This document shows positions 26,001 to 29,000 of a stretch of 64,000 nt of DNA, piece by piece. Position 1 is the first letter of the stretch. Every line of letters starts with the position of its first letter. Origin of the DNA: Candidatus Eremiobacteria bacterium (lineage in GTDB: Bacteria > Vulcanimicrobiota > Vulcanimicrobiia > Vulcanimicrobiales > Vulcanimicrobiaceae); assembly GCA_963758295.1 (NCBI GenBank), contig CAVWUU010000004.1, positions 544,001-608,000 on the forward strand. Reading direction: 5' to 3'. A program made the position numbers.

Positions 26001-29000
26001 ATTCGGCACAAAGCGTGCTCAGGCGCACCGACCGGTGACGGATGAGCTCGAGGAGAATGCGGATTTTCCGTTCGGTCGCGGTGCTCGGTTCGCCGGATGG
26101 GCGCGGGTGGCCGTAACGCTTCGATGCCATTGCGCGAGTATTTCGTCGCGTTTCCAGCTTTTTCCATCGCCACACGTCCGACGCAACACAATGCTAGTAT
26201 TGATGCATGTTTGCGGTAATCGTGATTTTTCTTGCGCTGGGCTTTGTAGTTCTTTCGGCTCAGTCGGGCGGCGGAGGTACGAAATCAGCGCTGCGCCGGC
26301 GTCGATCTTCCGACGACGCGGTGGTTGGCTTCATCATCGGACAGCAGGTGGCGAACCATCGGCACCATCATCACCATGGCGGGCATCATCACGGGCATCA
26401 TTAGTTCTCGCCGGCGAGGTCTCCAACGATAATGGGTCCTTCAACAAGCTCAGGATGACGGGTCGGGGAGGTCCTTAAAAGACTGCTTGACGCGGTATTC
26501 GCTGGAAGGATAGCGCGAGCGAAGATTGGCCCACTGGGTCAAGAGTTCGTCGCTATCGGGATCCCGGCGATAGCGTGTTACGCCCAGATAGTACTGCGCT
26601 TCCGGTGCCGCGTAGCTCGTGGAGAAGCGGCGCAGTACATCCAGATAGCACGCCTCCGCCTTCTCGAACCGCTTCAGGCGCAGATATCCCAGGCCGAACG
26701 CGGTGAGCAAACGCGCGACGTATTCCGCCGGCGGTAAAAATCCATCCCAACGATACAATTCATATCCATCGCTGCTCAAAATCCTAACGTCCGGCGTCCA
26801 GATGTGATGGATGCTATGCAAAAAATGATTGTTCTTTGCGTCGGAGTTGTCGATCTGTACGGGGATAGCGTGCGAGGCGATCGCTTCTTGCACGAATTTT
26901 TGTGGATACGTCACGGCATCCAGCGCTTGGCATCCCCCTCAACCAGGGTTGAACACATCCAATAAAACGAATTTGTGTTCGTCCCGCGCATGTTCGAGCG
27001 CCGGCTCGTAGTCGAGCTGCCAAAACGGCAATACTTCGGTGGCCATTCGTACCTACTTCTTCTTATGCTTGGCGCGCGTTGCGGCGGCTTTTTTTGCTGC
27101 CTTCTTCGCGACGCCGGTGCGTTTGCGGGTCGCTGCGCCTTTGCGCGCGCTTTCCTTGCGATGCTTTTGAGGGTGTACGCCGAGATCGGACGCCGACTTC
27201 TCCGAGAGATCGACGTCGTAGTACTCGGCGGCTTTCTTTATGTTTGCGAACGCCATTTGACGCTCGGCACTCGAAACATCGATGACCTGATCGAATCGCG
27301 CGACGGCGTTGCGCACGTGCTTCGCGTCGGTCAGCGGCTCCTTGCGCTCTTTGGGGAACGCGAAGACGCTATCGGGCAAATCGCTCTGGCGCGTGAGCCG
27401 GCCGTGTTTTTCGTGCGGTTTCCACGTTGCTCTCATGCAGTATTCATACCCATGTCAGGAGTCAGGCTCGTTTAGCTGCGCTTGTTCACGGTGGCGTACG
27501 CGATGCGCTTCGCTTCCGCTTCCGATTTGCCGCGGTCTTCTTCCGACTCCATGATGTGTTCGGCTTGGCGCTTTTCTTTGGCGGTGTAGCGGTGTGCGTC
27601 CGGATTTTGCTTGTTGACGGTGGCGTAACCGATACCTTCGGCCTCATCCGGTGAGATGCCGCGCGCTTCCTCGCTTTCGGCGATGTGCTCGACCTGCCGG
27701 TGTTCTTTTGCGGTGTATCGATGTTTTTTCGGCATGGTGCTGTTTTTCCCAAAGTTATGGTGTGATGCGCCTGCCCTTCGACAAGCTCAGGGTGACGAAT
27801 GAATGGCGCGATGCGCGAATTAAGGGAAACAATAAGAGCCGGAAGACGCGGCCAATGCCCGACGGAGGCGGCAATTGCGAAGGCGTCTGCTCGAACGTCT
27901 CCGTCGCCTATCACATGCGCTGGAAGAACGCTTCTCTTTGGCAAGGTCGCGAAATGCGCTTCTTGAACGGCTTCCCATGCGTTTGACGCTGCGGCTCTTC
28001 GCGATCCGAGTGCTTCCGGCTGTTTTGTGCGTTCTGCTAGCACAATCGACCGCAACGGCGGCGCAGCCAGCGAGCGCAGTTTCGTTTCCGTTTAAGTATC
28101 TGAACCATGAGGTCGTCGTTGACGTCCGCGTCGGCAGCTCGGGGCCGTACCACTTTTTGCTCGACACCGACACATCGCCGTCGGGAATCGATCTGGCGCT
28201 GGCGCGCAGGTTGCGGCTGCCATTGAGCCGGCCCGCGGGGAACGGCTCCGGCATTGGCAGCGGGACGCTGACGGCGATTCCGCTGGTAATTCCACGCATG
28301 AGCGTCGGCGGGTTGCCGGTGACGAACCTTGACGCACTCGCGTTCGATCTCTCCAAACTAAGCGCGCAGTTTGGCGGCCGCATCGCCGGCGTGCTGGGTA
28401 CGAGCTTTTTCAATCATCGCGTCGTGCAGATCGACTACCCGTGCCGGCGGGTTTCCATTTTGCCGGATGCGTTGCTTCAACCGTACACTGCGCGCTTTTT
28501 CAGTGATGAGAACGGGATCGGCACCGGGGAAGACCTCTCGAGCGACGTTTGCGTAAACGGGCGCCGAATCGTTGCGACGTTCGATACCGGTGATTCGGGC
28601 GAGTCGTTCGTGACGGCCTAAGGGCATTGGGGATTTGCATCTAGAGGCGCAGGTGCGAGCCGGAAAAGTTTCGCTTGCGCACGGCTTCTCGGGCGCGGCA
28701 ATGGAACGGCACGGCAGATTGGACCACGTAAGCATTGGGCCGTATTCGTTTGCGAGGATTGGCACGCGGTTCATTCCCTCAGCAGACGATCCGTTCGACG
28801 TGAACTTCGGAAACAAGACGCTTCAGCATTTCGTCGCAACCTTCGACTACCAGCGCGGCCTGCTCACTCTTGAGAAGCCGCGCGCCTGTACTTCTCCACC
28901 GCCGCCATAGCGGACCGCGGCGGGAATAAGCCGCAGCATGAGGCTGGATGCAGGTACCGAGCCGATGCTTCTTACCGACGGAGCACCGAGCGCGATTCCG

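Follow-up and report, generated by a model that had tools for sequence, protein, structure and literature searches.

Two neighbouring gene calls on the minus strand, of 35 and 154 aa, are separated by an in-frame TGA in the genome of a Candidatus Eremiobacteria bacterium of the family Vulcanimicrobiaceae, and the question is whether this codon ends one gene or encodes selenocysteine within it. The calls lie in a stretch of 64,000 nucleotides (contig CAVWUU010000004.1, positions 544,001 to 608,000), called the window here; all coordinates refer to it. The initial annotation had joined the calls, g02149 and g02148, into a single selenoprotein gene, and this was borne out, with conserved protein found on both sides of the TGA. 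One frame of 198 codons (26450..27046, minus strand) runs from an ATG at 27044-27046 to a terminal TGA stop at 26450-26452, and codon 36 (26939..26941) is its sole in-frame TGA. The ORF listing gives the upstream part as a 35-aa ORF (26939..27046, minus strand), and read-through joins it to the gene callers' version of the gene, a truncated 154-aa ORF with a GTG start at 26914 (26450..26914, minus strand). The product reads ...LLDVFNPG-U-GGCQALDAVTYP... around codon 36, with a redox motif U36-G37-G38-C39 (26930..26941, minus strand) that was located from the read-through frame, the alignment and the predicted structure. Judged by eye, the N-terminus carries no signal peptide. We read the locus, with a probability of about 0.88, as a single gene for a cytoplasmic 198-residue selenoprotein of a pan-bacterial family that combines a DsbD-gamma-like thioredoxin domain with a TPR-like domain, UGA codon 36 being decoded as selenocysteine under the direction of a downstream hairpin. 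There is almost no doubt that the TGA splitting the gene specifies selenocysteine, and that this residue sits in the active site of a small redox protein.

Public annotation sides with a true stop, which would leave a 35-aa remnant and make the 154-aa TPR protein a gene product of its own, beginning at the GTG. As the initial annotation had said, public calls amount to the part of about 150 aa after the TGA: among the matches listed, at least 120 public relatives, the window's own call included, all cover just 71-77% of the query, and at least 119 of those beside the window's own call are 142-156 aa long. They bear names such as "tetratricopeptide repeat protein", "TolA-binding protein" and "outer membrane protein assembly factor BamD", and the gene of the isolate Syntrophorhabdus aromaticivorans is annotated in the same truncated form (representative P0292). 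The protein itself argues otherwise. Pfam assigned Thioredoxin_7 to residues 9-74 of the read-through product (8.2e-08, 32.7 bits against a cut-off of 27) and Thioredoxin_2 to residues 21-112 (1.3e-06, 29.2 bits against 27), so that the thioredoxin domain spans the TGA, and in the predicted structure the truncated form would start in the middle of the fold. Full-length homologues with a CxGC motif also exist, and the 35 codons upstream are conserved as protein while their third positions drift: the first 30 loci show a coding pattern, with the first two codon positions conserved and an identity of 0.33-0.83 at the third in most codons. A true stop is thus highly improbable.

Conservation of the codon was then assessed across genomes. 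In 64 of 201 genomes of the same family (own genome included) the search matched across the site at E<=9.1e-37. The TGA is kept in all 64, and the phylum sample agrees, with 81 of 81 site-spanning matches carrying it; here too the earlier claim of a conserved TGA flanked by conserved protein held. The context F[NSG]P[GHT]-U-GGC was present in each of the 50 loci read. An internal stop, together with a few relatives elsewhere that look decayed (frames broken upstream in L226-L229, short sequences in L126 and L149), could also suggest a pseudogene created by a nonsense mutation. Since the same TGA is conserved at the same codon in all of these family and phylum matches, with intact frames on both sides, this reading is refuted and its probability is close to nil.

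The initial annotation had further proposed that the gene defines a selenoprotein family of Vulcanimicrobiaceae, and this restriction did not survive wider sampling. Within the phylum, three further families (f3, f4 and f7) have TGA forms, and the records that carry such forms bear at least 13 phylum labels, among them Thermodesulfobacteriota, Planctomycetota, Acidobacteriota, Nitrospirota, Chloroflexota, Bacillota, Gemmatimonadota and Armatimonadota; Geobacter sp. AOG1, Geomobilimonas luticola, Syntrophorhabdus aromaticivorans, Thermalbibacter longus and Syntrophaceae MAGs are among the carriers. The orthologues keep the TGA, and of 39 distant full-length homologues, 31 have cysteine in the U36 column. 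At the site, 12 relatives carried Cys and 67 carried TGA (n = 79), and the Geobacteraceae matches divided into 25 Cys and 41 TGA forms, the latter occurring in 35 of 87 Geobacteraceae genomes. TGA forms interleave with CxGC homologues, and a quick FastTree tree of 217 rows, from which no direction of change was drawn, required 19 changes between Sec and non-Sec states. Sec and Cys forms alternate within a pan-bacterial family.

The thioredoxin-fold domain, of DsbD-gamma-like type, comprises residues 9-112 (26711..27022, minus strand), as supported by Pfam, by the PDB profiles 2kuc_A and DsbD gamma, by Foldseek, and by a structural model with a pLDDT of 95.3. PF13098 scored above its cut-off in the product and was the top Pfam match in 4 of 6 members scanned. 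In the predicted structure, U36-G-G-C39 stands before and opens the helix 37-46, and G38 and C39 are nearly invariant in the alignment of family representatives. The W83-T84-P85 loop (26792..26800, minus strand), in which P85 is invariant and W83 nearly so, is presumably the cis-proline loop of the thioredoxin fold. A C-terminal TPR-like helical domain follows at residues 113-195 (26462..26710, minus strand), with predicted helices at 106-123, 127-140, 147-161 and 167-178; in the PDB profile search, YbgF (2xev) and CpoB (6g5s) matched profile positions 112-185. TPR models stayed below the Pfam cut-offs, the best being TPR_16 at 1.2e-4. The earlier assignment of U to the first position of a UxxC motif in a thioredoxin fold with a TPR-like tail is supported, with a Thioredoxin_7 match over cut-off and TPR matches below it.

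Downstream of the UGA, a bSECIS-like hairpin (26904..26921, minus strand) begins 17 nt after the codon and consists of a 6-bp stem and a 6-nt loop at 26910-26915. Silent sites are frozen next to the UGA, the third positions of codons +1 to +11 behind it being 0.80-1.00 identical in the first 30 loci. The hairpin announced by the initial annotation is present, its sequence needing one correction: the window's own copy reads GGAUGC-CGUGAC-GUAUCC, with G.U as the fifth pair where A-U had been quoted. Across 143 TGA forms, a set retrieved by protein and not by RNA, 99.5% of 858 stem cells were paired, in line with the conserved hairpin and the compensatory variant GGGUGC/GUACCC reported before, whereas the complete hairpin occurred in none of 19 Cys forms, in which 54% of cells were paired. 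When the 3' partner was slid by 1-3 columns in the same 143 forms, pairing fell to 23-61%. Five double changes were counted in the stem. The silent position of a Tyr codon follows the opposing Asp/Gly codon, giving Watson-Crick pairs in 78 of 80 cases (pair 3/16: A-U 56, G-C 22, A.C 1, G.U 1). The loop follows the pattern N-G-U-N-A/U-C, and GGUC-containing loops occur in some family members; the selD and fdhA hairpins of the same genome have GGUCU loops and share with this hairpin the G-U at loop positions 2-3.

Some features of the hairpin call for restraint. Taken alone it is of ordinary stability, with an MFE z-score of 0.59 and 146 of 200 shuffles folding as well, and its near-invariant stem offers little covariation: three of the six pairs are invariant, and 114 of 500 shuffles matched the observed number of double-change pairs. 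Conservation of the peptide (D/G)(A/T)VTYP could also explain part of the nucleotide conservation. The outer stem of a G-run and a C-run that had been described around the hairpin was not recovered; RNAalifold predicted the 6-bp hairpin alone on the 143 TGA forms, and the window's sequence has no C-run 3' of it. A search of the window against Rfam at the gathering threshold gave no matches. A bacterial SECIS element of the fdhF type is a hairpin soon after the UGA with G-U in its apical loop. The present hairpin resembles it in its location shortly 3' of the UGA and in the apical G-U, and differs in a stem that starts 17 nt after the UGA, has only 6 bp and was found with no lower stem.

The genome encodes what selenocysteine insertion would require. 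SelA (505.9 bits), SelB (337.9 bits), SelD (388.9 bits) and a tRNA-Sec(UCA) with anticodon TCA (69.7 bits) were all found above curated cut-offs; the selD gene itself contains one TGA, at CAG-U-ASKL, and so does the gene of FdhA (1024 bits). The gene would accordingly be the third selenoprotein gene of this Vulcanimicrobiaceae genome, beside SelD and FdhA. SelA was found in 62 of 63 other carrier genomes of the family and was not detected in one carrier (G055, 83% complete); this association is weak evidence because most of the family, 172 of 200 genomes, has SelA in any case. Alternatively, near-cognate suppression or local recoding to Trp, Cys or Gly might carry translation past the UGA with no selenium involved and with the hairpin as a generic stimulator, and one metagenomic representative (P0131) does show W at the column, presumably from a caller reading TGA as Trp. 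TGA is otherwise an ordinary stop, however, ending 384 of 1031 long open frames and being the commonest stop on such frames. This, the genome's complete Sec machinery and its two classical selenoprotein genes, the location of the codon at the nucleophilic Cys of a CxxC motif, which is a typical place for Sec, and the loop G-U held in common with the selD and fdhA hairpins make selenium-free read-through very unlikely.

We then asked whether the selenoprotein family is already known. A family named 'thiol:disulfide interchange protein' was reportedly introduced by Kryukov and Gladyshev in 2004, and cd02953, the domain assigned to it, is one that we take to be DsbD gamma. The family is tabulated with PF13098, a UxxC motif and the example WP_011366075.1 (PMC13188914 Table 1), appears as 'Trx-like 2' with cd02953 and UxxC (PMC2398784), and is named for Syntrophus aciditrophicus, Geobacter metallireducens and G. 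uraniumreducens (PMC1794560). Going by these published table descriptions, the gene most likely belongs to this family, with which it shares UxxC, PF13098, a DsbD-gamma-like fold and Geobacteraceae and Syntrophaceae hosts. It differs in its TPR tail: neither TPR nor tetratricopeptide is mentioned in the texts on the family that were examined. Full-text searches found no literature on selenocysteine in Eremiobacterota, only unrelated literature for a thioredoxin-like/tetratricopeptide selenoprotein with a SECIS, and nothing for the family name together with 'selenoprotein'. The family is very widespread and was most likely described some twenty years ago, and the gene is therefore a routine annotation miss from a family probably known since 2004 and very probably not new.

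Current understanding is not overturned by the gene. The practical consequence is that gene calls in this family should extend across the TGA, hundreds of public entries being 150-aa stubs with TPR, TolA-binding or BamD names. A Trx-TPR protein with a Sec nucleophile and a near-invariant hairpin shared across phyla would also be a convenient system for SelB-SECIS recognition and for Sec/Cys switching. It is possible, though doubtful, that the 2004 entry refers to a simple DsbD-gamma-like protein of the type of the WUGAC forms L112 and L176, and that the 190-aa Trx-TPR form is a distinct, uncatalogued pan-bacterial cytoplasmic 'seleno-chaperedoxin'. If so, its recoding hairpin would be so constrained that the peptide (D/G)(A/T)VTYP is fixed across at least 13 phylum labels, and databases, RefSeq isolates included, would be systematically shortening it to a TPR protein or BamD.

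The product was compared with characterized proteins of similar build. DsbD gamma of E. coli and Neisseria (PDB: 2fwe, 1uc7, 4ip1, 6dnl) shares the thioredoxin fold with a CxxC-type motif in the same place, the chains giving profile E values of 3.4e-16 to 4.6e-12 and Foldseek TM scores of 0.70-0.74 normalised to the target; DsbD gamma is, however, the periplasmic end of a membrane protein and carries Cys, whereas our product has no membrane domain and continues into a TPR-like domain. NCBIfam had no model over cut-off for the product or for 16 diverse members, and the assignments to DsbD, TsoB or Trx7/PDZ (NF001419, NF045694, NF041199) were rejected at 27.3 bits against 330 (DsbD) and 21.4 against 805. 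CnoX/YbbN (PDB: 3qou, 3qdn), described as a 'chaperedoxin' (PMC10998233), is likewise soluble and carries a TPR domain C-terminal to a single thioredoxin domain. The superposition was poor (200-213 columns, TM 0.39-0.40, rmsd 11.6-12.4 A, 11-14% identity by Foldseek), and the present protein is set apart by a thioredoxin domain of DsbD-gamma type, a shorter TPR part and Sec in the active site. VPGUxxT (seleno)proteins of types 1 and 2 (NF041382, NF041383), listed as 'OS_HP5' (PMC13188914 Table 1), also have P-G-U where the first helix of a thioredoxin-like fold begins. Membership was rejected on scores of 27.7 bits against 275, a weak match over residues 9-97, and 10.8 against 350, on the motif, which is N-P-G-U-G-G-C and not U-x-x-T, and on length, the VPGUxxT models having 287-349 positions and the product 198 aa.

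From the fold and architecture, we infer a function, reductant and client as follows. During translation, UGA codon 36 would be read as selenocysteine, with SelB carrying Sec-tRNA(Sec) bound to the mRNA hairpin 17 nt after the UGA, as at the genome's own selD and fdhA hairpins. In the folded protein, the U36-G-G-C39 motif that opens the first helix would face the W-T-P loop, and a TPR-like domain of the YbgF/CpoB and BamD kind would follow. The U36 selenolate may attack a disulfide or sulfenate of a client protein, C39 would resolve the mixed Se-S bond, leaving a selenenylsulfide for a cellular reductase to reduce again, and the TPR-like domain may hold the client or a partner, as in the Trx-TPR protein CnoX/YbbN.

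A real selenoprotein need not be a disulfide reductase, and the product could instead act as a peroxide or sulfenate reductase, or carry selenium or a metal through U-G-G-C. Several UxxC and CxxU selenoprotein families are metal-related (PMC13188914 Table 1), and in this phylum the gene has no conserved redox partner as a neighbour. We consider such a role unlikely: the nearest solved structures and profiles belong to thiol-disulfide exchangers (DsbD gamma, DsbH, 2kuc, thioredoxins), the W-T-P loop is invariant, and one clade ties the gene to redox genes. In that Desulfobacterota clade, 9 of 79 loci have glutaredoxin-like and ferredoxin-thioredoxin-reductase-beta-like genes downstream in the same orientation, a hint at the reductant of the proposed disulfide exchange. 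In all, 129 loci were compared, and those of Eremiobacterota shared no conserved partner gene, as the initial annotation had noted of the neighbours. The largest neighbour clusters shared among the Eremiobacterota loci were antisense shadows of the gene itself, together with a glycosylase-like ORF in 9 loci.

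The interval 26450-27046 (-) holds a well-supported, real selenoprotein gene. The ORF listing shows it as two pieces in the same frame, a 35-aa 5' ORF (26939..27046, -) and an adjacent 154-aa 3' ORF starting at GTG (26450..26914, -). Read through, the frame gives a 198-residue product with codon 36 as its sole internal TGA (LLDVFNPG-U-GGCQALDAVTYP); its terminal stop is TGA too. Two Pfam models extend across the internal TGA above their cut-offs, Thioredoxin_7 (8.2e-08, residues 9-74) and Thioredoxin_2 (1.3e-06, residues 21-112), and TPR models cover residues ~110-185 below theirs. 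ORF listing, translation and Pfam thereby reproduced the figures of the initial annotation for frame and domains, and its reading as a selenoprotein gene with a read-through TGA was correct.

The genome (82% complete, 6 contigs) encodes SelA (505.9 bits), SelB (337.9 bits), SelD (388.9 bits) and tRNA-Sec (69.7 bits; anticodon TCA by ARAGORN), all over curated cut-offs, and with this full Sec system the organism decodes Sec. SelD itself contains a TGA, at CAG-U-ASKL (L010, G000:C2:200941-201864), as does FdhA (1024 bits) at ARI-U-HSS (L380, G000:C1:319093-322047). The genome is not globally recoded, since TGA is otherwise the commonest stop of long open frames (384/1031).

In a set of 201 family genomes that includes the window's own, site-spanning matches at E<=9.1e-37 came from 64, and the TGA was present in 64/64; weaker matches (E>=2.5e-8) were mostly stop-free long open frames of ~460-700 aa, the remainder being two small fragments on short contigs. 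All 50 loci read had the TGA inside F[NSG]P[GHT]-U-GGC[QKLH]A. Over the first 30 loci, the stretch of 27 codons 5' of the TGA showed a coding pattern, with positions 1 and 2 conserved and third positions 0.33-0.83 identical at most codons. On the 3' side, third positions were 0.80-1.00 identical at codons +1 to +11, falling to 0.40 at codon +12. All but one of the other carriers have SelA (62/63; it was not found in G055, which is 83% complete), an association that is weak support because 172/200 family genomes have SelA anyway.

A 6-bp hairpin, GGAUGC-CGUGAC-GUAUCC (26904-26921, -), begins 17 nt after the UGA. Its single-sequence stability is unremarkable (z-score 0.59). We aligned 143 distinct 60-nt stretches of TGA forms, retrieved by protein similarity to avoid circularity, and RNAalifold returned exactly this hairpin and no other structure; the outer G-run/C-run stem proposed in the initial annotation was not recovered, nor does a C-run follow the hairpin in the window. 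With all pairing and covariation counts, here and below, inflated by kinship, 99.5% of 858 cells were paired, falling to 23-61% when the 3' partner was slid by 1-3 columns; pair 3/16 changed from A-U to G-C in 5 sequences, and pair 5/14 alternated between G.U (93) and A-U (49). The near-constancy of the stem leaves little covariation to see. Loop sequences follow the form N-G-U-N-A/U-C, and the hairpins 3' of the UGA in this genome's selD and fdhA, which have GGUCU loops, share the G-U at loop positions 2-3. The decisive control for the link between hairpin and UGA forms came from the Cys forms of this family: the complete hairpin occurred in 0/19 distinct sequences, and 54% of cells paired.

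The pattern UGA-N6-UGY-N9-hairpin, searched over all species genomes, yielded at least 119 stretches. The 80 loci read formed a second set, in which positions 3 and 16 were free as R and Y and the other stem positions were fixed by the pattern itself; here the Asp/Gly codon co-varied with the silent third base of the opposite Tyr codon (A-U 56, G-C 22, A.C 1, G.U 1). All 80 matched the window's protein by BLASTP, 76 of them across both domains; two were short (L126, L149) and two matched in the Trx domain only (L112, L176). The latter two represent another architecture, in which the motif is W-U-G-A-C and the TPR tail is absent, one of them being much longer; they carry the identical hairpin and the peptide MDTVTYP, so the hairpin is common to more than the Trx-TPR form. 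Two Geobacteraceae TGA forms (L334 and L338, from G375 and G374) have, instead of the usual hairpin, a shifted stem, ACGC-GGUC-GCGU, with a GGUC tetraloop, encoding DAVAYP.

Among 1.84 billion representatives, 1368 proteins matched at E<=0.001, including full-length homologues of ~190 aa at 25-39% identity. The U column held Cys in 31 of 39 aligned homologues and otherwise S (4), W, Q, N or a gap, and many 150-aa entries start at M(D/G)(A/T)VTYP, directly 3' of the TGA. In a 193-aa metagenomic representative (P0131), the Sec column is occupied by W (FFNPG-W-GGC), most simply a TGA that a gene caller using another code would have read as Trp. Sampling 300 other genomes of the phylum gave a TGA in 81 of the 81 site-spanning matches listed, the window's own among them; 11 of these fall in three other families, f3 (9), f4 (1) and f7 (1), one being in a genome flagged unpublished (G337). 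Relatives of a Geomonas Cys form comprised 67 TGA and 12 Cys forms, and 59 of 87 Geobacteraceae genomes carried the family (TGA form 35, Cys form 25, both 1). By record titles, TGA forms occur under at least 13 phylum labels, those of MAGs being only as reliable as the depositors' assignments, and in the named isolates Thermalbibacter longus CFH 74404, Syntrophorhabdus aromaticivorans UI, Geobacter sp. AOG1 and Geomobilimonas luticola JCM 17780. The proposal of a family specific to Vulcanimicrobiaceae is therefore dropped: the gene, though widely mis-annotated, is an ordinary member of a pan-bacterial family of selenoproteins with a UxxC motif and a thioredoxin fold, its Sec residue being predicted from sequence. 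In four Syntrophaceae/Syntrophales MAG loci (L226-L229), the match begins only at about residue 18-62 and the upstream frames are broken; these may be decayed or rearranged genes.

AlphaFold2 on the homologue alignment gave a confident model (pLDDT 95.3, pTM 0.89) with a thioredoxin fold (strands 26-32, 60-66, 86-90 and 96-101), U36 right before helix 37-46, and then helices 106-192. DsbD gamma domains were the best Foldseek matches (TM 0.70-0.74 on target); the alignment to YbbN/CnoX, though 200-213 columns long, was poor (TM 0.39-0.40). The sequence profile agreed with the model, with matches to 2kuc_A and DsbD gamma in the N-terminal half, and to YbgF and CpoB in the C-terminal half. Together with the invariant P85 of the W-T-P loop and an N-terminus that, read by eye, has no hydrophobic leader, these results point to a predicted cytoplasmic selenol/thiol-disulfide oxidoreductase, whose TPR-like domain would hold a client or partner.

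The sole contextual hint to function lies in one Desulfobacterota clade, where neighbourhood comparison found a glutaredoxin-like and an FTR-beta-like (ferredoxin-thioredoxin reductase beta) gene 3' of the selenoprotein gene on the same strand in 9 of 79 loci (L263, L271, L272, L276, L282, L283, L284, L286 and L296; about 2120-2740, +); the pair may form a dedicated reductant system. The same comparison found no conserved neighbour in Eremiobacterota loci. In the window, a 127-aa DUF6582 protein (27053-27436, -; Pfam 1.5e-15) ends 6 nt before the selenoprotein ATG and is probably co-transcribed with it; this pairing is absent from the clusters conserved across 129 loci compared. The WYL/WCX-domain regulator (25159-26175, -), aspartyl-protease-domain protein (27875-28621, +) and ATP-dependent DNA ligase domain protein (28938-29549, +) nearby have no evident link to the selenoprotein. 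Just downstream, two small ORFs, both no more than candidate genes, overlap on opposite strands (26207-26404, +; 26285-26401, -), one with a His-rich tail, HRHHHHHGGHHHGHH, the other Met-rich, MMPVMMPAMVMMVPMV.

A recent review tabulates 119 selenoprotein families (Table 1; AEM 2026, PMC13188914). Matched by descriptors only, the present family is quite likely the 'thiol:disulfide interchange protein' family of 2004, whose three descriptors all fit. Of 6 members scanned, 4 had PF13098 as their top Pfam match, and in the window's protein it ranked second; the fold is of the DsbD gamma type; and TGA forms are abundant in Geobacteraceae and Syntrophaceae, like the hosts given for the published Sec form (Syntrophus aciditrophicus, Geobacter metallireducens and G. 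uraniumreducens; PMC1794560). The present family has a TPR tail, however, of which none of these publications speaks. In NCBIfam, neither the window's protein nor any of 16 diverse members scores above a model's cut-off, and the shortened forms are consequently named 'tetratricopeptide repeat protein' or 'BamD' by NCBI. Truncated TGA forms from Geobacteraceae MAGs (P0414, P0420, P0458) appear there as 'outer membrane protein assembly factor BamD', and even that of the isolate Syntrophorhabdus aromaticivorans (P0292) as 'tetratricopeptide repeat protein', names that mislead because the N-terminal domain is missing from the truncated forms.
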